NCBI GenBank assembly: GCA_022704305.1 | Contig: JAKJGQ010000001.1 | Span: 16,779 to 80,778, forward strand | Direction of reading: 5' to 3' | DNA: 64,000 bases | From: Thermotogota bacterium | GTDB taxonomy: Bacteria; Thermotogota; Thermotogae; Petrotogales; Petrotogaceae | Part shown: positions 14,401 to 27,170 of the stretch, piece after piece | Numbering within the stretch: position 1 is the stretch's first letter | How the letters are laid out: every line of letters starts with the position of its first letter | Made by a program: the position numbers and the translations under genes | Notes under the pieces: generated by a model | What the model was told of the DNA's origin: nothing | What the model saw: only the letters and a program-made list of their open reading frames with translations | Databases searched by the model: none

Positions 14401-15132
14401 ATGAAAAGTTCTGATTATCCGGTTATCGTTCTTGGACACAGAGGGTATAGGAAGCTATATCCAGAAAACACGTTACTGGCTTTTAAGAAAGCAATGGAGT
14501 TTGGTGCGGATGGTGTTGAACTTGATGTCTGGAAGGCGAAAGACGGAAGTATAGTGGTGATACATGATCCTGATTGTGAAAGAGTATCGGGGCTCAGAGG
14601 CATTGTAAAGGAACTTTCATATAAAGAAATAAGAAAGCTTCGTCTTCCGATGAACCAGTATATTCCCACTCTGGATATGGTATATGCTGAACTGAAGGAA
14701 GATGCATATATTAATGTGGAGATAAAAGATGTTGAAGCTGTTGAAACTTCCCTTCAGATAGTAAGAAGCTTTAATGCCGTTGATAGAACTTTATTTTCAT
14801 CTTTTATTCCGGAAGCACTTTACAGATTAAGAGAGCTTCAGAGTGATGCTTATCTTGGACTTCTTGTAGATACCAAGGATCAGCTTTCGGATATATCAAA
14901 AGTAAATGAAAGAGTGGGTCTGTACTCTCTAAATGCACCTTTGGACGGTATAAAGTTTTTCGGAGTGGAAGCTTTTAAGAATCTTATTGCAAAAATGAAA
15001 GAAGAGGATATAAAGATCGCTTTATGGCATTTTGATGAACCCGAATGGGTTGAAAAGATAAAGGGATACTATGACTGCATAATAACTGACGATGTGCAGG
15101 CAATAGTAAATAAACTTGAAGAAATTTACTGA
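14401..15132 (+). CDS. ugpQ: glycerophosphodiester phosphodiesterase (GDPD family)
   Basis: GDPD catalytic motif HRG (LGHRGY), E..D metal ligands and a TIM-barrel-sized product. Confidence 0.75.
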   Translation: MKSSDYPVIVLGHRGYRKLYPENTLLAFKKAMEFGADGVELDVWKAKDGSIVVIHDPDCERVSGLRGIVKELSYKEIRKLRLPMNQYIPTLDMVYAELKEDAYINVEIKDVEAVETSLQIVRSFNAVDRTLFSSFIPEALYRLRELQSDAYLGLLVDTKDQLSDISKVNERVGLYSLNAPLDGIKFFGVEAFKNLIAKMKEEDIKIALWHFDEPEWVEKIKGYYDCIITDDVQAIVNKLEEIY

Positions 15133-16213: not shown

Positions 16214-16921
16214 TTATTCAAGGGGATAGTTTTTTTGTAGTCTTTCATACTCGTAATTTATGGAACTTAACACATAAAGTGCAGCAGTTTCAAATCTAAA
16301 AACAGTATTTCCCAAATTCACTACAGAAAAAAAGGTTTCATGGAAGAATTTCTTTTCATTTTGGGAAAAGCCTGTATCGGGGCCAAAAACTATATTCAAT
16401 GAATTCAACTTCTTTTTAAGTTCTTCTTTTAAAGAGCTTGTTCCTTGGAAATCAAAAACAAGTGTATTTTTTAAAGGAATATCCTTTATGTTTATAAAAG
16501 AAAACTTAGGAAAATTACATAAAAAAGATTGTTTTGAGCTTTCTGCAATCAACTTCAGAAATTTTTTTTGATCATCGTACTTAAAAGTAGACTTTTCACC
16601 GTTAAAAACGAATATTGAACTTACTCTGTGTTCCACAGCTTTTTCAATAAGCATTTGCATCCTATCCCATTTTGAAGCACCAATAAAAAGGTTTATTTCC
16701 GGAAGAAAGGAACAATGTATATTCTTTATCTTGAGTATTTTGAGATCGGCTGTTTTCTTGTTTATTTTTATTACGATACACTCAAAAAGCTTACCTTTCC
16801 CATCAGTTACATTGATTACTTCGTTTTCTCTTACCCGTACGGATCGGAGATGAGCACATTCTTCTTCGTTTAGGCAAGCATACTCTCCGCTGAATGAATC
16901 AAGCAAGAAAACATTAGGCAT
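16214..16921 (-). CDS. rsmE: 16S rRNA (uracil1498-N3)-methyltransferase RsmE
   Basis: RsmE-length protein (235 aa) with a PUA-like N-terminus and a SPOUT C-terminal knot region. Confidence 0.7.
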   Translation of the reverse strand: MPNVFLLDSFSGEYACLNEEECAHLRSVRVRENEVINVTDGKGKLFECIVIKINKKTADLKILKIKNIHCSFLPEINLFIGASKWDRMQMLIEKAVEHRVSSIFVFNGEKSTFKYDDQKKFLKLIAESSKQSFLCNFPKFSFINIKDIPLKNTLVFDFQGTSSLKEELKKKLNSLNIVFGPDTGFSQNEKKFFHETFFSVVNLGNTVFRFETAALYVLSSINYEYERLQKNYPLE

Positions 16922-16925
16922 ACTT

Positions 16926-18200
16926 TTATCCTATATACTCTTTTTTCATATATGGAATAAGTACATCCGGAACTTTGACTTTTCCATCAGAAGTCTGATA
17001 ATTTTCAACTATTGCAACGAGAGTTCGTCCGATAGCAAGCCCTGAACCGTTAAGAGTGTGAACGTACTTAAGTTTGTTATCTTTATCCCTGAACCTTATA
17101 TTTCCTCTGCGTGCCTGAAAATCACCGTCATTAGAACATGAGGATATTTCTTTATAAGAATTGTAGCTTGGCAACCATACTTCAATATCGTAAGTTCTGC
17201 TAGCCCCAAATCCAAGATCTCCGCTACACAAACGTATAACTCTGTATGGAAGTTCAAGCAATTTTAAAACTTTTTCGGCATGCGATGTAAGAGTTTCGAG
17301 ATCTTCAGCCGATCTTTCAGGAGTTGTATGCCATACAAGCTCAACTTTATCAAACTGATGCTGGCGTATTACTCCCCTTACATCTTTACCGTAGCTTCCT
17401 GCCTCACGTCTGTAACATGGAGAATAGCCGCAGTACTTTGCCGGCAGATCCTTCAGTTCAAGTATCTCGTCCCTGTGCATGCCTACCAATGCCACTTCAG
17501 ATGTAGGAATAAGAAAAAGGTCATCCCCTTTTGTGTTATAAAGGTCTTCTTCAAACTTTGGAAGCTGTCCGGTAGCTGTTATAGTTTCTCTTAAGACCAT
17601 ATGTGGAGGCAGTACTTCAGTATAACCATGCTCCGTTGAGTGAAGATCCATCATGAATGCCCCGAGTGATCTTTCTAATCTAGCAAAATCGCCTTTCATA
17701 ATTGTAAACCTAGATCCTGAAAGTTTGGAACCTCTGTCAAAATCAAGTCCGTTTAATTCACTGCCAATTTCCCAGTGTGGTTTGGGTTCAAAATCAAATT
17801 TTCTTGGGATACCAATTCTTCTGATTTCTGGGTTGAACGTTTCATCCTTTCCAATGGGAGTATCCTCATCGTATACATTAGGAATATAAAGAAGTTTCTG
17901 CATGTACTGTTCATCAATCTGTTTCAATTGAGCTTCCAGCTCTTCTGACTGTTGATTAAGAATTTTTCCGTTTTCAATATTCTGGCGGAGTGCTTCTTCG
18001 TCGCCTTGTGCTTTTAATCTTGCAACTGCCTTGGAGTTTGTATTTTTAAGAGATCGTATTTCTTCAACTTTTTTGAGGATATCACGTCTTTTTTCATCAA
18101 GAGCAACTAACTCATCAAGAATCAAGGTTGAAGAATTTCTGTTTATAAGGCAGTTTCGTATCTTTTCAATGTTAGTTCTTACAAACTTCATATCAAGCAT
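16926..18200 (-). CDS. serS: seryl-tRNA synthetase
   Basis: N-terminal coiled-coil tRNA-binding arm and class II aaRS motifs (motif 2 FRxE, motif 3 GxGxGxxR: GLAIGRTLVAI). Confidence 0.9.
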   Translation of the reverse strand: MLDMKFVRTNIEKIRNCLINRNSSTLILDELVALDEKRRDILKKVEEIRSLKNTNSKAVARLKAQGDEEALRQNIENGKILNQQSEELEAQLKQIDEQYMQKLLYIPNVYDEDTPIGKDETFNPEIRRIGIPRKFDFEPKPHWEIGSELNGLDFDRGSKLSGSRFTIMKGDFARLERSLGAFMMDLHSTEHGYTEVLPPHMVLRETITATGQLPKFEEDLYNTKGDDLFLIPTSEVALVGMHRDEILELKDLPAKYCGYSPCYRREAGSYGKDVRGVIRQHQFDKVELVWHTTPERSAEDLETLTSHAEKVLKLLELPYRVIRLCSGDLGFGASRTYDIEVWLPSYNSYKEISSCSNDGDFQARRGNIRFRDKDNKLKYVHTLNGSGLAIGRTLVAIVENYQTSDGKVKVPDVLIPYMKKEYIG

Positions 18201-18219
18201 AAATAAGTCCTCCTAAATA

Positions 18220-18843
18220 TTATTTGTTTTCTTTTACTTCCAGTGTCAGGTTTATTCCTTCTGCTTTCATTTCATTTGTATCAGTTCTGAAAGTCGAGTT
18301 CTGTGTTTTAAGATCTATTTTTTTGGCATCGTTTTTTATCCGTACATCTCCGTTAAGTACAAGAATCTTGGTAGTTTCATTGTAAGAAAAGTTTTTTGCT
18401 GAAATCACATAATCTTCTTTTAATATTTTGACTAAATCATTTGAGGAACCAGTATAATTCTTTTCTTTATTATTAAATTCAAGAACATCACACGAGATGT
18501 AAAGATCTTTTTTATCAACTAAAATCTTTACGGATACTTTTTTCGAAAGCTGACCTTTTTCTGTGCTCAGATCAAATTTAAAAAATTCTGCTGATGCGTT
18601 TAAGGTTGATGTTTTTATGGTTGTTGCTGAGCATACCATATCTCGCCAATCATCGTCCAACTGGGTAATAGTTGCTACTTCAGTCATCATGGTAAGATCT
18701 GATTTTTTTATTACAACATTATCTTTTAAGACATGCTGCTTATCGCCCAAAGTTCCAAATCTAGAGCTGACCGAAATCTGGCTTTGAGAAAAAACAATAC
18801 TAAAAGATAATAATAAAATAAAAAATAGAATAATTTTCTTCAT
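18220..18843 (-). CDS. secreted LptC/OstA-N-like beta-jellyroll protein
   Basis: Signal peptide, then repeated beta-strand motifs typical of LptA/LptC/OstA_N domains (VLKDNVVIKKSD; VLNGDVRIKNDAKKIDLKT). Start overlaps the upstream gene by 4 nt. Confidence 0.5.
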   Translation of the reverse strand: MKKIILFFILLLSFSIVFSQSQISVSSRFGTLGDKQHVLKDNVVIKKSDLTMMTEVATITQLDDDWRDMVCSATTIKTSTLNASAEFFKFDLSTEKGQLSKKVSVKILVDKKDLYISCDVLEFNNKEKNYTGSSNDLVKILKEDYVISAKNFSYNETTKILVLNGDVRIKNDAKKIDLKTQNSTFRTDTNEMKAEGINLTLEVKENK

Positions 18844-19616
18844 AATTCAAGTTTTCCCTCCATATATTTTTGACATGTTTTCATTCCATCATAAAAGGCT
18901 ACACTATCCAATGGATCTTCCAATGGACTTTCACAAGTTATTAGTTCAATATCTTTGCTTATGATCCTGAACAATTCTCTTGTACGTGCGTAAGAAATTT
19001 TTAAAAGTATCTCGGCAGCATTCATTGCTCTGGATACAGAGCCACCCGCTTCATAAGAAATTATCAGTCCGTCTGGAGAGAGATTGTATGGTGAAAGACA
19101 GATATATGAAGAAGGAATTAAAAACATATCGGATAGTTCAGTATATCTATAATACGGTAGTATCGATAATTCAGATAAAAGAACCTGAGAAATCCTAGTT
19201 TTTCTATTAAGTAGGAAAAAATTTCCTGTTTTTATGTCAAAAACTTCAAAATCAACTCTATGCTTAAGCTTTTCTATAGTCAAAGTGCCAAAATGTGAGT
19301 CAAGATATTTAGAAAAAGTAGTCTGATTTTTAAGTTCAAGACCAGATGTACCAAGCTTCAAAAGAGTTATTGCCTGTTGATATCTGCTGGAGAAAAGATC
19401 TGAGTCGATAAGCGGTTTAATAGGATTATCTTTTTCCTCAATAAATTCTTTTAAATACTTATAAAAATTTTTTCCATGCATGCCATAAAAAAATCCTATA
19501 AGACTGGAAGCACCACTTACAGTTAACTCTATATTATTATCGTGCATAAGGATATTACTAAGAGCTCCGCTATCCCATACTATACCCTCAAAAAGGCCTC
19601 CCATGAAAATTTTCAT
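18840..19616 (-). CDS. hypothetical protein, possibly a degenerate patatin-like paralog
   Basis: Glycine-rich N-terminus (FMGGLFEG), VSGASSL where patatins have G-x-S-x-G, and a D-G-L near the C-terminus where patatins have D-G-A/G. It overlaps both neighbouring genes by 4 nt. The assignment is weak. Confidence 0.4.
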   Translation of the reverse strand: MKIFMGGLFEGIVWDSGALSNILMHDNNIELTVSGASSLIGFFYGMHGKNFYKYLKEFIEEKDNPIKPLIDSDLFSSRYQQAITLLKLGTSGLELKNQTTFSKYLDSHFGTLTIEKLKHRVDFEVFDIKTGNFFLLNRKTRISQVLLSELSILPYYRYTELSDMFLIPSSYICLSPYNLSPDGLIISYEAGGSVSRAMNAAEILLKISYARTRELFRIISKDIELITCESPLEDPLDSVAFYDGMKTCQKYMEGKLEL

Positions 19617-20410
19617 GTTATATCACGGCTGTATACTCTTTTAGCCTTCCTGTATATTTCAAAATACTTATCAAAATCATACCATTCAACTTTATCATAA
19701 AAAGAATAAACTTCATTAGCTGTATCAAGTTCGTTTTTAGTAATTAAAGCTGTTTTAAGAGAATCTATATAATTCATATAATCCATTCCATCAGAGAATG
19801 TATCTTTAAGTATAACCGGATTTATGTCATTAGCAATTATGTACTCTCCACCCAATTTTTTAGCCAAAAAAACAGGTACTTCAGAAATTGCTCCTCCGTC
19901 TACTAGATCCATGCCTCCCAGTCTCATTGGGGGAAAAGCTCCCGGAACATTTGAAGATGCCATTATGGCATCAATAAGATACCCCTCTGTTATTTCAACT
20001 AAGCGTTCAGAATTTATATCAAAGGCTACTACTCCAAACTTGATCTTACAATCTGAAAACCTTTTTTTACCGTATATCTGTTTTAAAATATCATATACTA
20101 GATCATTCTGGGCTATTCCTCTTGAATAAAGAAGCCTTTTAAAGGAGTTTACTTTTGATGATAGAGCGTTGCTTAAATCAATAAACTTCAGGGAATTTTT
20201 TTTAATTATAGCCTCAAAATCTTTCAGGAACTCATTTTTTGAAGGATTTAAAGCATAAACGCCTCCGACAACTGATCCGGCACTACAGCCTGTGACAATG
20301 TCGAATTTTATGTTCCTTTTTCTCACAATCTCACTGATGAGGGCAATATGTGCAATTCCTTTTACTCCTCCGCTTCCAAGTGCAAGAGCGTTTATCATTA
20401 CTTCCTCCAT
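19613..20410 (-). CDS. patatin-like phospholipase (lipid acyl hydrolase)
   Basis: All three patatin motifs are present: glycine-rich oxyanion loop LGSGGVKG, nucleophile elbow GCSAG (G-x-S-x-G), and the catalytic Asp in MDLVDGG. Confidence 0.85.
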   Translation of the reverse strand: MEEVMINALALGSGGVKGIAHIALISEIVRKRNIKFDIVTGCSAGSVVGGVYALNPSKNEFLKDFEAIIKKNSLKFIDLSNALSSKVNSFKRLLYSRGIAQNDLVYDILKQIYGKKRFSDCKIKFGVVAFDINSERLVEITEGYLIDAIMASSNVPGAFPPMRLGGMDLVDGGAISEVPVFLAKKLGGEYIIANDINPVILKDTFSDGMDYMNYIDSLKTALITKNELDTANEVYSFYDKVEWYDFDKYFEIYRKAKRVYSRDIT

Positions 20411-20413
20411 TTT

Positions 20414-22534
20414 TTACAGAGAAGGACTCAGTAAAAAGTAGGTTATCAGAGCTCCTACCGCTACTCCAAGTACTCCCGAAATGGTTGAGGACCAAAAAAT
20501 ATCTTGATTAGGCTTTTGTAGTTCTGATATCTGCTTTTCCATCTCTGTGACTTTTAATGAAAGCTCGGAAGATGCCGTAACTTTCTGAACTGATAATTCA
20601 ATATCTGCTACTTCTTTTTTTGATGCTTTTTCTGCATTTATTTCGTTGTATTTTGAACTAAGTGAAAAAACTGTTTTTTTGATATCAGACATATCGGATT
20701 GCAATTTAATTAGTTCTGATGCAAGGTCAGAAGAGAGCTCACGTTTGATTTCTGTTTTCATACTGCTTAAATCAACTGTTTCGGCAATCTTAGTAGTCTC
20801 AGGAGATACAGTTTGATTTTTAAGCAGTATATAAGATTTTACTAAAAAATCATAATCTTCTTTTAATTTCTGTATTTCATTTTTATTAATTTCTGAAACA
20901 AGGGAGTTGCTCTGTTTCAAAAGATCAGAATTATAAATGAGTTCCAATTTATTTTGATTTTCATAAACAAGAGAAGAAAGATCCTCTAACTTTTTTTCAC
21001 TTTCTCCGACTCTTTTAGCTATAGAGGCAACATTTCCAATAGTATTCAAAGTATCTTTATCAAGTTTTATAAGTGATGAAAGCGAGTTTATCTGAGATTC
21101 AACAGAGTCTGTTCTCAACAAAAGCTTCTGTATACTTTCATTTTGTGCACTCTGGGTTTTTTCTGAAATTTTGAACTTTTCGTCATACTCATTGGCTTTA
21201 ATAGTATATATATATAGCTGAGAGAGCTTATCAGAGTACATGTTAATATATTCCTGCATAAGTCTTACTTCCTGCTGCAAGTTGACAAAATCATTTTTAA
21301 GGACATAATCAGTTATACTTGAAGGTATAGATTGGTTTGAAGTTGCTTTTATATTTTCAAGCATCTGACGGAGTTCTCCAACAAAAGAATTAACATCTGA
21401 ATTTTTGCTTTCTAACTCAGAAAGTTTTCTTGTAAAATACTCGTTTCTATTATCATATGTGTCTATAAATGCATTTATGTACTCAACTCTGTTATTAAGG
21501 TTATCATAAAGAGTTTTGGTATCCTTAATGTCGTTAGCAAGAGATTGAGTGTCTTTTTTAATTATAAGCAGTTCCTTATCATTTTGTACAGTACTTTGAA
21601 ACGCCGGAACTGTTTCTTTTGATTCCAGATAGACAAGTCGTGAGATAATATCGTTAAAACGTTTTTCATATTGATTCTGTCCGGAGTACTCAAGAGCAGC
21701 TATACGATCTCTCAAAGTGCTCAAAGTTGCTTCTGCCGTCTGATTGTAAAATCCTATGTGACTGTTGACAATATTTCTTAAAGCTACTTTCATTCCTTCC
21801 ATCTCACTGTCAAGCCTTTGTTTGGCATAATCGTTAAGTTGCTGACGATTTTTTTCTTCATATTGAGCAAAAAGAAAACTTATAGAATCAGTTGTTTTGT
21901 CAAGCTTTTCTTCTATTCTTAATAGTTCTGATTGAAAGAGATCGACCTTTTTATTTGACTGTTCTGAAAAAGACATAAGAGTTTTAAGGTAGGAATCGGC
22001 TGTTTTTTTCGCTGTGTCATTTGCAATAGCCGCGGCATTGTCCAAAATTACTTTAAATATTGCACTATCCGTATCAAGCGGCCCATCTATGTTCATAAAT
22101 TTTTCAAGTGCCTCTACTCTGGATTTCTGCTGAGCTATATCACTGTTCAATCCCGAAATCTTTGAATCAATTTTTTTCTCCATAGATATTATTTTACTGT
22201 CATAGTTGTAAAGAGTTGTCTCTATATTGTTTATACGGTTTTCGAGACTTTCAGTATCAATCTGGGATATTCTTTTTTCAAAATCATCGAAGCTGCTAGA
22301 GTACTTTTTATCAAGGTAATCTATAAGATTTGCTCCGAAAAAGGCAATATCAAATCTCATGACGTTTGATGAGCCATTGAATCTTCCCTGACTGTCCAGT
22401 TCAAGAAGACCATCAGTTACCATACGTACAACTTGTGAATAGTATGGAGAAGAAGGTTTAAGGTCACGTATTTCTAACGAAAATACCGGAATAGAGACAA
22501 AAATAAAAATAAATACAAGGAAAAATTTTCTCAT
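20414..22534 (-). CDS. Ompα-like envelope anchor: N-terminal SLH-like domain, about 550 aa coiled-coil rod, C-terminal transmembrane helix
   Basis: Signal peptide, then an SLH-like segment (DLKPSSPYYSQVVRMVTDGLLELDSQGRFNGSSNVMRFDIAFF). A long heptad-rich Q/E/K/L region follows, and the protein ends in a hydrophobic anchor ISGVLGVAVGALITYFLL. Confidence 0.65.
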   Translation of the reverse strand: MRKFFLVFIFIFVSIPVFSLEIRDLKPSSPYYSQVVRMVTDGLLELDSQGRFNGSSNVMRFDIAFFGANLIDYLDKKYSSSFDDFEKRISQIDTESLENRINNIETTLYNYDSKIISMEKKIDSKISGLNSDIAQQKSRVEALEKFMNIDGPLDTDSAIFKVILDNAAAIANDTAKKTADSYLKTLMSFSEQSNKKVDLFQSELLRIEEKLDKTTDSISFLFAQYEEKNRQQLNDYAKQRLDSEMEGMKVALRNIVNSHIGFYNQTAEATLSTLRDRIAALEYSGQNQYEKRFNDIISRLVYLESKETVPAFQSTVQNDKELLIIKKDTQSLANDIKDTKTLYDNLNNRVEYINAFIDTYDNRNEYFTRKLSELESKNSDVNSFVGELRQMLENIKATSNQSIPSSITDYVLKNDFVNLQQEVRLMQEYINMYSDKLSQLYIYTIKANEYDEKFKISEKTQSAQNESIQKLLLRTDSVESQINSLSSLIKLDKDTLNTIGNVASIAKRVGESEKKLEDLSSLVYENQNKLELIYNSDLLKQSNSLVSEINKNEIQKLKEDYDFLVKSYILLKNQTVSPETTKIAETVDLSSMKTEIKRELSSDLASELIKLQSDMSDIKKTVFSLSSKYNEINAEKASKKEVADIELSVQKVTASSELSLKVTEMEKQISELQKPNQDIFWSSTISGVLGVAVGALITYFLLSPSL

Positions 22535-22548
22535 CTTTATACCTCCGT

Positions 22549-24264
22549 TTACTTTAAAACAGCAAGATCGTCAATGAAAAGGGACTGAGCAGCGTCAATA
22601 TATATTACAAACTTTATACCTTTGGTTTCTATTACATGAGGTCCTTTTGAAACGTATACTATAAACTGTGACGGTGGATAAATTACTCCGTCAATTTTAT
22701 ACTCTCCTGAAGAATAAGGCCTTATGGGAATTTTATCTTCAAATATAAAGTTAAGATTTTTAACTTCCTGGTCAGCTATATCTATTTTTTCAGTTTTTTC
22801 GATATTCTGATATTTTACTGTCACAGTATGCCGTCCTGTAGACAAAGGATAGCCAAAAACGCCAAAGTATCCAATAAGTTGGTTGTCAATATATATAAGA
22901 GTACCGTCGACATTGTTTATTATATTTACAAAACCATATCCAGGTGAATCGATTATAAGAACGTTAGTTTTTCCAGACTCTGCAGAAATATTGTATTTTT
23001 TTGTAAGACTTTCAAACTGAAAAGTCTGTGTTTTAGAGATAATATTTGCAATAAATTGTGCAGGTACGGTACTTATCTCATTTTGATAAGAGATACTCTT
23101 TTTTTCTGAAGAGTAAAGATTCATAACCGTTATTTTGTTTATATCAATGATCTTCGGAGCTTTCTGGTCAAGCTTTATACCAAGCAGATCCGAAGTATTT
23201 TTGCTGTATATCTGAAGAAAATGTTCCTTTTTATCGGCAACTATAAAAGAAATGCCTGAACCAAGGTTTATTCCGTCAAGAAACACTTCAGCATTTTCTG
23301 CGTTAAGAAGTTTGAAAGTCCTTATATCTTCTTCCAAACTTACAGTATAACTTATCTGAGGAGTGGCCTCACTTATATTTGCAGAAAGCTTCTTAGGAGT
23401 ATAAAGAGCTTTTGATACCGTAAATAGATGATTTCCCATAGGAATCTGTGCGGTAAACGGAGTTATTCCAAGATACTCATTATTCAATGTAACTAAAGCT
23501 CCTGAAGGCTCTGAAGAAAAAAGCACAGCGCAAGCTTTGGTCATTGTAAATATATAATCGTTTGTTTTAGAGTCAGTTTTAAAACTGAAATCCATATATC
23601 CAGGTGCTTTTAGTATAATATCCTTTCCCTCCAGCAAAGTTAAAGCCGTCGCATAAGGAGTAGTGCCCAGATTTTTTGAGCCTACAAAAATGCTTGCATC
23701 AGAAGGTATGGAAGATATATATGCAAAGTCAGTTCTTTTAAGTGTAACAGACAGCTTGTTTTCATAAAAAGGTTTTAAGTCAATTGTAACTGTTTGGGAA
23801 AGATACCCTGCTTGCTCTATCTTCAATTCTCTTATTGTAGAGGGCAGGTAAGTTTGGGTATCGTTAATAACTTTCTGGCGTATATTATTATTGTTGAACA
23901 TATAATTTATATAGAAACTGTCACTATTCGTTTTAATGTTGAGAATACTTAGCGGGACCTGTAAAGCTGAAATCTCTAACTTTGAACCTTTGGTACCGGA
24001 AATATCCAATGAATAATCTGAATATCCAGGTTTTTTAACTTCCAGCTTATGGGTTGTATCTGACAGATCTATGTTGTATACGGACTTTTCAATGATTTTT
24101 TTAAAAATTCCGTCTATAAATACTGAACTTCCTTCTAAACCAGAAAGAGTAAGCGTAAATGAAAAAGATAATATGTATGCCAAAAGAATAAAAACCGTTA
24201 AAAAGAGTCTTTTACCGATATTCCCCACTCTTAACCACCTCTTTGATTGTTTTTTGTAGCTCAC
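22549..24264 (-). CDS. secreted/membrane-anchored protein with about six PEGA domains
   Basis: N-terminal TM or signal segment plus repeated PEGA-like units, for example SIFVGSKNLGTTPY...APGY, VTLNNEYLGITPF and VFLDGINLGSG. Confidence 0.65.
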   Translation of the reverse strand: MSYKKQSKRWLRVGNIGKRLFLTVFILLAYILSFSFTLTLSGLEGSSVFIDGIFKKIIEKSVYNIDLSDTTHKLEVKKPGYSDYSLDISGTKGSKLEISALQVPLSILNIKTNSDSFYINYMFNNNNIRQKVINDTQTYLPSTIRELKIEQAGYLSQTVTIDLKPFYENKLSVTLKRTDFAYISSIPSDASIFVGSKNLGTTPYATALTLLEGKDIILKAPGYMDFSFKTDSKTNDYIFTMTKACAVLFSSEPSGALVTLNNEYLGITPFTAQIPMGNHLFTVSKALYTPKKLSANISEATPQISYTVSLEEDIRTFKLLNAENAEVFLDGINLGSGISFIVADKKEHFLQIYSKNTSDLLGIKLDQKAPKIIDINKITVMNLYSSEKKSISYQNEISTVPAQFIANIISKTQTFQFESLTKKYNISAESGKTNVLIIDSPGYGFVNIINNVDGTLIYIDNQLIGYFGVFGYPLSTGRHTVTVKYQNIEKTEKIDIADQEVKNLNFIFEDKIPIRPYSSGEYKIDGVIYPPSQFIVYVSKGPHVIETKGIKFVIYIDAAQSLFIDDLAVLK

Positions 24265-24655
24265 TTAATTTTTCTATAAGTTCTTTTTCATTTCCCAACC
24301 TATCGATAACTGATTGCATAACTTCTACTCTTTTTTTGATTACTTTGGTAATAAGTTCTCTTCCAGAATCGGTAAGTTTGATCCTATATACTCTTTTGTC
24401 TTCCTCTGACTGCTCCCTGTCCAAAAAATAAAGTATTTCCAGTCTTTTTATTAGACCAGTTGTAGTGCTTTTGGTTACTCCGAGATTTTTACTTATTTCG
24501 CTTAACTTTTTCTCTCCGTCGAAGTATAATAGTTGTAATACATCAAATTGAGCAGGAGAAATGTCGTAATCTTTCAGAACTTTCCTTCCAGCTGCCCTGA
24601 TGTGGAAACAGATCGACCTTAAAATGCTTTCCATATTTTCTGCGTTCTTGTACAT
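24212..24655 (-). CDS. MarR-family transcriptional regulator
   Basis: Winged-HTH MarR signature (LSEISKNLGVTKSTTTGLIKRLE), 147 aa; first gene of the minus-strand block. Confidence 0.85.
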   Translation of the reverse strand: MYKNAENMESILRSICFHIRAAGRKVLKDYDISPAQFDVLQLLYFDGEKKLSEISKNLGVTKSTTTGLIKRLEILYFLDREQSEEDKRVYRIKLTDSGRELITKVIKKRVEVMQSVIDRLGNEKELIEKLSELQKTIKEVVKSGEYR

Positions 24656-24691
24656 TTTGATACCTCCCCGAGTTTTAAAATTATTATTATC

Positions 24692-24726
24692 ACAAATTAC
24701 AAGAATTTGTAGTAAAATAATTACAA
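24692..24726. promoter_or_regulatory. Overlapping palindromes ACAAATT-N5-AATTTGT and TTGTA-N10-TACAA (candidate MarR operator)
   Basis: Perfect inverted repeats in the divergent marR / membrane-protein intergenic region, overlapping a TACAAT -10-like element. Confidence 0.5.
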
Positions 24727-24767
24727 TATACAGCTATTCTATCATAAAATTCTGGAGGAACAAAGAA

Positions 24768-25244
24768 ATGAGTAAAAATATAACCATTACAGCTATGCTT
24801 TCTGTGCTAACTATAATACTTTTTTCATGTCAGATGTTTATTCCTGTGGTAGGAATCTTCGTTGCATATTTTTCTATTATTCCACTTATGTTCATATATG
24901 AAATGACTAATGCTAAATATTTTTTTATGTCGCTTATTACATGCATATCTATGGTTATGATTCTGAATGATCCTTTTGGATGGATTTTCTTTGATCTGCT
25001 TCTGGTTCCGCCCGCAATTACAACTGTAACAAAAAACAAAATTCTTAAGTTGATAATGATTGTTCCTATAGAGATAGGTTTTCTTCTTTTATTTAAGATA
25101 CTTGTAGTAAATGGTTCAAAAATTGATATGATTTTATCAAATATATGGTATATACTTGGTATACTGTTTTATTTCGCAGGAACTTTCTTTTATCGTAAAG
25201 CTTTTTTGATATCAAAGATGCTACTGAAAAAAATAAACTACTAA
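24768..25244 (+). CDS. small polytopic membrane protein (unknown function)
   Basis: 4-5 predicted TM helices. ATG at 24768 with GGAGG about 9 nt upstream. The track ORF 24600.. is an N-terminal over-extension that overlaps marR. Confidence 0.55.
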   Translation: MSKNITITAMLSVLTIILFSCQMFIPVVGIFVAYFSIIPLMFIYEMTNAKYFFMSLITCISMVMILNDPFGWIFFDLLLVPPAITTVTKNKILKLIMIVPIEIGFLLLFKILVVNGSKIDMILSNIWYILGILFYFAGTFFYRKAFLISKMLLKKINY

Positions 25245-26966: not shown

Positions 26967-27170
26967 ATGTACGAAATACAGAGAAATCCTACTGAAAAAC
27001 TTATCATTCAGAAAAACGAGTTCAAAGGAAAAGAGTATATTGACATCCGGATTTTTTATGAAGATGAAGGTGAGTACAAGCCAACAAAAAAAGGAGTCAC
27101 ATTTAATCCGGATCAGATTGATGAAGTTATAAAAGCCCTTGAAAGTATAAAAGAAGAATCACAGAAATAA
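26967..27170 (+). CDS. PC4/YdbC-like ssDNA-binding small protein
   Basis: KEYIDIRIFYEDEGEYKPTKKGVTFNPDQIDEVIKAL aligns with the eukaryotic PC4 core [31 protein letters not shown]; the latter is cited from memory. Confidence 0.65.
   Translation: MYEIQRNPTEKLIIQKNEFKGKEYIDIRIFYEDEGEYKPTKKGVTFNPDQIDEVIKALESIKEESQK

Follow-up and report, generated by a model that had tools for sequence, protein, structure and literature searches.

The DNA analysed here, referred to as the window, is a stretch of 64,000 nucleotides (nt) from a Thermotogota bacterium of the family Petrotogaceae (assembly GCA_022704305.1, contig JAKJGQ010000001.1, positions 16,779 to 80,778 of the forward strand). On its minus strand the window carries a tightly packed block of genes that starts with marR and continues with a gene for a secreted PEGA-repeat protein, a gene for an Ompα-type SLH/rod/anchor protein, the patatin-like phospholipase gene pat1, its paralog pat2 and a gene for a protein of the LptA/LptC fold (lpt), after which come serS and rsmE (Table 1). 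Every gene from 16214 to 25244 was identified from a listing of open reading frames (ORFs) combined with Pfam and NCBIfam profile searches. The gene order, strand and identities proposed in an earlier sequence-only reading of this region were borne out. In what follows, the first three genes are called unit A (marR/PEGA/anchor) and the next three unit B (pat1/pat2/lpt).

Table 1. Positions of the genes and candidate signals of the block, in window coordinates.
Feature	Position	Strand	Evidence and remarks
marR	24655-24212	-	PF01047, E=1e-13; 147 aa; first gene of the block
Secreted PEGA-repeat protein	24228-22549	-	PF08308, E=5e-25; 559 aa
Ompα-type SLH/rod/anchor protein	22534-20414	-	706 aa; SLH by ortholog profile
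pat1, patatin-like phospholipase	20398-19613	-	PF01734, E=1e-31; 261 aa
pat2, catalytically dead patatin-fold paralog	19616-18840	-	258 aa; faint patatin match; hhalign and AlphaFold/Foldseek
LptA/LptC-fold (OstA-like β-jellyroll) protein	18843-18220	-	34.8 bits with PF03968 (cut-off 20.4); 207 aa
serS	18200-16926	-	TIGR00414, E=3e-160; 19 nt 3′ of the Lpt-like gene
rsmE, 16S rRNA methyltransferase	16921-16214	-	PF04452/PF20260, NF008704; last gene before the terminator
Intrinsic-terminator-like hairpin, 10 pairs and T-rich tail	16229-16204	-	Directly after rsmE; strong
Extended -10-like element TGATAGAAT	24744-24736	-	89 nt 5′ of marR; candidate block promoter; motif match
Inverted repeat ACAAATT-CTTGT-AATTTGT	24710-24692		Candidate MarR operator; 3′ of the -10-like element and ahead of the marR ribosome-binding site
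Divergent 158-aa polytopic membrane protein	24768-25244	+	Across a 112-nt intergenic region from marR

The junctions between the genes of the block are short throughout. The stop codon of pat1 and the start codon of pat2 share a 4-nt ATGA overlap (19616/19613), as do the stop codon of pat2 and the start codon of the Lpt-like gene (18843/18840); both overlaps had been pointed out before and are present in the sequence. The overlap between marR and the PEGA gene, previously put at about 50 nt, is probably 17 nt, a value that follows from a GTG start at 24228. We placed the start of the PEGA gene at this codon because it is preceded by the Shine-Dalgarno-like sequence AGAGGTGG, because it yields a normal signal peptide, and because its equivalent is the start chosen by the gene callers in relatives (559 aa). 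The start of pat1 is most likely 20398, with GGAGG just upstream, and the remaining gaps in the window block are all 19 nt or less. On the minus strand, no terminator-like site was found from 24655 to 16230, inside the block or elsewhere in that interval, and the only such site after marR is the hairpin that follows rsmE. An Rfam scan of the window gave no matches, and the G+C content of the window is about 31-39%. The window SerS is identical in sequence to proteins from MAGs (metagenome-assembled genomes) of uncultured Petrotogaceae. Judged from these sequence features, the six genes of units A and B are probably co-transcribed as one unit.

Conservation of the block was assessed from the homologs of pat1 and their contigs, a genome scan with a patatin alignment, a metagenome scan with the SLH domain, and local hidden Markov models (HMMs) of the six families. 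The genome scan gave 80 loci among the matches listed, and the named Petrotoga, Marinitoga and Thermotoga genomes were not among these. Rather than lying scattered, which would have spoken against a module, the six genes show synteny throughout the sampled Petrotogaceae lineages, always in the order marR-PEGA-anchor-pat1-pat2-lpt. The order was found in Tepiditoga spiralis, in Marinitoga piezophila, in three Petrotoga loci including that of Petrotoga olearia, and in lineages represented by metagenome-assembled genomes (MAGs; loci L012, L096, L097, L098 and L104/105), and all junctions in the Petrotogaceae loci are 57 nt or less. The identity to the window proteins ranges from 48-62% for MarR, 28-32% for the PEGA protein and 24-30% for the anchor protein to 42-56% for pat1, 29-41% for pat2 and 39-46% for the Lpt-like protein, compared with 60-69% for SerS. 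The surroundings of the six genes are less constant. In most Petrotogaceae loci serS lies 3′ of the block, although not in Petrotoga, where serS-rsmE is missing downstream and MatE genes stand upstream, and in Tepiditoga a pseudouridine synthase gene is found upstream. The flanks vary and the core is constant, which places the breakpoints at the borders of the six-gene core. In the metagenome scan, all 15 loci of this SLH subfamily that show a neighbour have adjacent cluster genes in the same order (15 of 15); a sixteenth locus consists of a gene fragment only.

Outside the Petrotogaceae only parts of this arrangement were seen. Two Thermosipho MAGs (L016, 9131-13041, and L019) carry the order nadE-nfo-pat1-pat2-lpt-miaA-dnaX, in which the trio stands directly between nfo, which encodes an AP endonuclease, and miaA, with gaps of 0-3 nt; this clearly illustrates that unrelated housekeeping genes can be packed like an operon in this phylum. 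The pat2 proteins of Thermosipho and of the Petrotogaceae are homologs (96% probability, E=1.5e-9). A further MAG (L020) has pat1-pat2 with the Lpt-like gene 3 kb away on the opposite strand, and in two MAGs labelled Thermotogota/Thermotogae (L013 and L014) pat1 is followed by a probable pat2 (76% probability). In the MAG AUK213 (L010), the second gene after pat1 is weakly similar to pat2 (18.8% probability), and the assignment is doubtful. Among the matches listed, a pat2-like or Lpt-like neighbour was found at none of the 69 patatin loci from outside the Thermotogota. The sequence-only reading had suggested that the block could be one lineage-specific system. The part of that suggestion that stands is the family specificity of the six-gene combination; the part that does not is its unity, as the block is composite, and the trio or the patatin pair occurs in other Thermotogota.

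The two patatin-fold proteins differ in their active sites. The product of pat1 matched PF01734 with 111 bits (cut-off 27.7), and its GGxK (GSGGVKG), GCSAG and DGG motifs are intact, with G10-G11, S39 and D167-G168 invariant in 14 homologs. For pat2, which had been suspected of being a degenerate patatin paralog, comparison with the patatin alignment by hhalign gave a probability of 98.1% (E=9e-14, 233 columns), and its AlphaFold model, with a predicted local distance difference test (pLDDT) value of 85.7, matched PlpD, CapV, CapE and patatin in Foldseek (E=1.5e-9 to 1e-5). The top match was PlpD (5fya, E=1.5e-9, template-modelling score 0.65). In 13 of 14 pat2 sequences a P, A, S or T stands where the catalytic Asp would be. 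The nucleophile position is variable (S, G or A), L, I, M or V has taken the place of the final Gly in GxSxG, and the oxyanion motif GGxR/K is missing. Because both the Ser-Asp dyad and the oxyanion motif are lost, pat2 is a pseudoenzyme and not a lipase, and the earlier suspicion proved correct. The pat2 family is small and fast-evolving: of 1.84 billion representatives searched, it accounts for 9 clusters. For both pat2 and the PEGA protein, word-indexed searches gave only near-identical relatives, and more distant homologs were recovered by synteny and the local HMMs. Within the block, pat2 is most likely a regulatory or scaffolding partner of pat1 that is translationally coupled to it, and the two proteins may form a complex.

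About 1 kb past the end of the block, and convergent with it, lies a glycerophosphodiester phosphodiesterase (GDPD) gene (14401-15132, plus strand; PF03009, E=4e-34). Phospholipids stripped of all their acyl chains would be the substrates of such an enzyme, and the gene was considered as a functional link to the lipase products; in other genera it does not lie close to the cluster, and this candidate was rejected. In the closely related MAG contigs L001 (14485-15212) and L002 (16429-18275), the GDPD gene and the dnaK gene are called as two fragments, which are probably assembly or frameshift errors.

The assignment of the third gene of unit B as LptC/OstA-like held up. The window protein exceeds the PF03968 cut-off, and among its orthologs PF03968 was found in 11 of 11 and PF06835 in 9 of 11. 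Its best PDB sequence match was E. coli LptC (4b54, E=0.009). The scores stay below the equivalog cut-offs for LptA and LptC (TIGR03002, 25.9 bits, cut-off 71.7; TIGR04409, 24.4 bits, cut-off 38). The N-terminus is a cleavable-looking signal peptide. Proteins of the LptA/LptC fold carry lipids across the periplasm and form periplasmic lipid bridges. The Thermotogae are reported to lack lipopolysaccharide (LPS) synthesis (PMC10160955), and according to one proposal an Lpt-like fused permease of T. maritima (G4FGC1) transports lipids to the outer envelope, or toga (Sexton 2023, PMC10160955). A survey reported almost no other outer-membrane genes in the Thermotogota (PMC8871954).

The anchor protein begins with the signal peptide MRKFFLVFIFIFVSIPVFS, as read from the sequence. 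Pfam called no SLH domain in the window protein and detected PF00395 weakly in three of five orthologs (best E=0.0035); a profile of the N-terminal domain built from five orthologs matched the SLH domain of OmpM in the PDB (8bz2/8bym, E=1.6e-5). By a count of its composition, the putative rod, about 586 residues long, is poor in Pro (4 residues) and Gly (8 residues), and only 39% of its 42-residue windows have a heptad-like hydrophobic periodicity. Beyond the N-terminus, hydrophobic 19-mers are confined to residues 679-706 (IFWSSTISGVLGVAVGALITYFLL), and the same is true of three orthologs. These results support both the SLH domain and the C-terminal anchor that the sequence-only reading had proposed. 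By analogy with Ompα, the SLH domain most likely attaches the protein to the wall, and the C-terminal helix would be embedded in the toga. Ompα anchors the toga in T. maritima (PMC3387000).

In the neighbouring PEGA-repeat protein, Pfam recognised three significant PEGA stretches. Self-alignment of the family profile with hhalign gave repeat offsets of about 73, 144, 210, 279 and 409 residues, which points to 7-8 tandem β-rich units of about 65-73 aa each, in place of the six repeats counted before. A PDB profile search gave no match for this protein, and an AlphaFold model based on an alignment of three sequences had a pLDDT of 36.6, which is too low for use. From its sequence, it may form a periplasmic or toga-associated chain of β-rich domains. 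A different PEGA protein was observed in AUK213, whose lineage is without the marR/PEGA/anchor unit: a 709-aa CsgG, FlgT_C and PEGA protein is encoded about 4.5 kb 5′ of the patatin pair, on the opposite strand (L010/L011, 3314-5443, minus strand).

The winged-helix domain of the window MarR matched PF01047 with 51 bits, and the MarR profile matched T. maritima TM0710 (2a61) in the PDB over its whole length and at ortholog level (E=5e-47); no paper that mentions TM0709-TM0712 was found in the searchable literature. The sole Cys of the protein, C16, is located in the N-terminal helix and is invariant in nine orthologs. In a motif search of the window, TGnTAnAAT occurred once on the coding strand across all 8.6 kb of the block, at the -10-like element upstream of marR. 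The sequence TGGTAAAAT stands 40-64 nt 5′ of marR in L096, L097 and L104, and the positions of extended -10 motifs inside the block are not conserved between lineages. The 7-5-7 inverted repeat lies 3′ of the -10-like motif and is identical in the close relative L001. On sequence grounds, the -10-like element and the repeat are candidate regulatory leads. The divergent membrane protein gene beyond them is kept at this place in Marinitoga, L012, L096, L097 and L104 and is missing beside marR in Petrotoga and Tepiditoga. A weak DUF2232 match was obtained for the Marinitoga copy, and no Pfam match for the window copy. Farther out on the plus strand, after argS, a 67-aa ORF (26967-27170) encodes a PC4 (transcriptional coactivator p15/single-stranded DNA-binding) domain (E=2e-17), and this ORF is also present in the close relatives L001-L005.

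We favour, with modest confidence, a reading in which the block is family-specific and probably a single transcription unit, formed from two older units, the envelope unit A and the lipid unit B, that were set next to each other. Unit A would consist of a repressor and two Sec-exported envelope proteins, and unit B of a cytoplasmic active lipase, its inactive paralog and a secreted Lpt-fold lipid carrier. MarR, as a winged-helix repressor, would repress the promoter 5′ of its own gene, and on its release the tether, the PEGA scaffold, the lipase pair and the lipid carrier would be made together. Such joint expression could coordinate the spacing of the envelope with the turnover and export of membrane lipids. 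Toga assembly is a plausible role for the block, and it stays a putative one, like the lipid remodelling put forward in the sequence-only reading.

Several observations weigh against this reading. Units A and B are joined in the Petrotogaceae only, and no marR, PEGA or SLH-rod genes were found within 10 kb of the patatin loci of other Thermotogota; unit A could stand alone elsewhere, given the close T. maritima MarR ortholog TM0710. The serS-rsmE pair is packed as tightly as the core and is conserved almost as often, and serS is probably co-transcribed with the block but functionally unrelated to it. With this pair so tightly packed and the Thermosipho trio lying among housekeeping genes, overlap and co-direction are evidently the rule in these genomes and therefore say little about shared function. 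What stands of the earlier argument that the junctions imply coupling is that they are tight and that no internal terminator-like site interrupts them; the weight placed on packing as such does not stand. A comparison between genera yielded no conserved MarR operator, and the sequence of the inverted repeat at 24710-24692 is not kept in other genera. Among the genes from 16214 to 25244, the Pfam and NCBIfam searches found no ABC-transporter or LptB/F/G-like gene adjacent to the Lpt-like gene. Finally, pat1 and pat2 have no signal peptide and would therefore act on the cytoplasmic side of the membrane and not directly in the toga, and any role in the toga would therefore be indirect, through inner-membrane lipid turnover feeding export.

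The same facts bear on a rival account, in which independent units packed in compact Thermotogota genomes have been held together by descent and not by joint function. This gene-order inertia is possible, and we judge it clearly the less probable of the two. It would explain why serS-rsmE is equally tight and conserved in most lineages, why the Thermosipho trio fits between nfo and miaA with almost no gap, and why the two units are unlinked beyond the family. What it explains less well is where the order breaks: the rearrangements seen in Petrotoga, in Tepiditoga and upstream in Marinitoga all lie outside the six genes and never within them, across at least eight lineages. The order has also been kept despite divergence of the envelope proteins to 24-32% identity, and the trio persists in Thermosipho with wholly different flanks. 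These points argue against inertia.

A more far-reaching reading can be proposed, although we regard it as unlikely as a whole. Unit B would be a lipid-handling unit specific to the Thermotogota that processes inner-membrane phospholipids and passes lipid to a periplasmic Lpt-like bridge, which supplies the lipid patches of the toga. In the Petrotogaceae, a MarR that senses thiols or ligands would control this unit along with the PEGA scaffold and an Ompα-type tether of double length, in a way that sets periplasm width and lipid supply jointly.

The invariant Cys16 suggests yet another function, that of a membrane-damage regulon, which we hold to be less probable still. MarR would sense oxidants or lipophilic compounds through this residue and would derepress a lipase pair that removes damaged acyl chains along with proteins that reinforce the envelope. 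The location of Cys16 in the N-terminal helix is as in one-Cys OhrR-type sensors, the OhrR model is among the best NCBIfam matches of the protein, far below its cut-off, and many MarR regulators respond to lipophilic ligands. The best PDB relative, however, is the uncharacterised TM0710 and not OhrR. In addition, on an informal reading of the MarR alignment, the Tyr residues that we take to be the partners of the OhrR Cys are not conserved here, and these bacteria are anaerobes whose membrane lipids are for the most part saturated, so that lipid peroxides are a less likely source of stress. An anti-phage defence island with the patatin as a membrane-degrading effector, as in cyclic-oligonucleotide-based antiphage signalling systems (CBASS), is so improbable that we reject it: pat1 has weak PADLOC phospholipase effector matches (best 45 bits) and scores 32 bits with the NCBIfam CBASS lipase model (cut-off 200), and the pat2 model resembles CapV/CapE, but no cyclase or other sensor component was found at the locus, PADLOC was blank for pat2, the PEGA protein and the Lpt-like protein, the locus is stable and vertically inherited across the family beside housekeeping genes, and its base composition is like that of its surroundings.

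The way in which the toga, an unusual outer envelope, is tethered and receives its lipid bears on models of outer-membrane evolution (PMC10160955). The combination of an envelope unit and a lipid unit described here offers concrete candidates for testing. These are the long tether of Ompα type and its PEGA-repeat partner, a stand-alone protein of the Lpt fold from a phylum that reportedly has no LPS synthesis (PMC10160955), and a lipase together with its conserved inactive paralog, which were not seen as a pair outside the phylum among the patatin loci listed. Petrotoga and Marinitoga are cultured, and transcript mapping, fractionation and biochemistry are thus feasible. Should the units prove functionally unrelated, the block would serve as a caution that, in genomes as compact as these, neither gene overlap nor synteny within a family is enough to delimit a functional module. 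All the components are members of known families; for the combination, as for the pair of patatin and pseudo-patatin, no published description was found in the searchable literature, in agreement with the earlier remark that no such module was known.

The components of the block can be compared with known systems. The pat1 protein resembles the RssA/YchK-type patatins in its full set of Ser-Asp dyad motifs and matches the RssA model with 103 bits, although this score is below the equivalog cut-off of 272 bits. The fold of pat2 is that of the PlpD passenger domain, but the POTRA and barrel domains of PlpD are not present here. The pairing of a patatin with a dead paralog sets the block apart from known patatins, as it was seen in the Thermotogota only, among the 80 patatin loci listed. 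The Lpt-like protein shares with E. coli LptC and LptA the OstA-type β-jellyroll (PF03968, PF06835), the N-terminal hydrophobic segment and a similar size, whereas no lptB or lptFG adjoins its gene. Its cleavable-looking N-terminus gives it an LptA-like topology, yet its best PDB sequence match is LptC. MarR and TM0710 (2a61) have in common an ICF motif that holds Cys16.

The anchor protein shows detectable homology to OmpM/SlpA (8bym, 8bz2, 7zgx; E=1.6e-5), with which it shares an N-terminal SLH domain followed by a stalk, here a putative coiled coil. Those proteins end in a β-barrel porin, whereas the protein described here ends in a single hydrophobic helix. It resembles Ompα (OmpA1, TM0477; Engel 1992; Petrus 2012, PMC3387000) along its entire architecture, from the signal peptide and the SLH domain through the long, here putatively helical, rod to the C-terminal anchor of about 20 residues. 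The rod of Ompα is 316 residues long, compared with about 586 here, which is nearly double. The anchor protein could not be assigned as an ortholog of OmpA1, of OmpA2 or of Pmob_1624, the second homolog in Petrotoga, and the secG-tyrS-ompA-ompB context (Petrus 2012) is absent, PEGA and patatin genes flanking the anchor gene in all loci. As in the ompA1-ompB operon, the anchor gene adjoins the gene for another exported envelope protein in an apparent operon; there the partner is the downstream Ompβ porin, and here it is the upstream PEGA-repeat protein.

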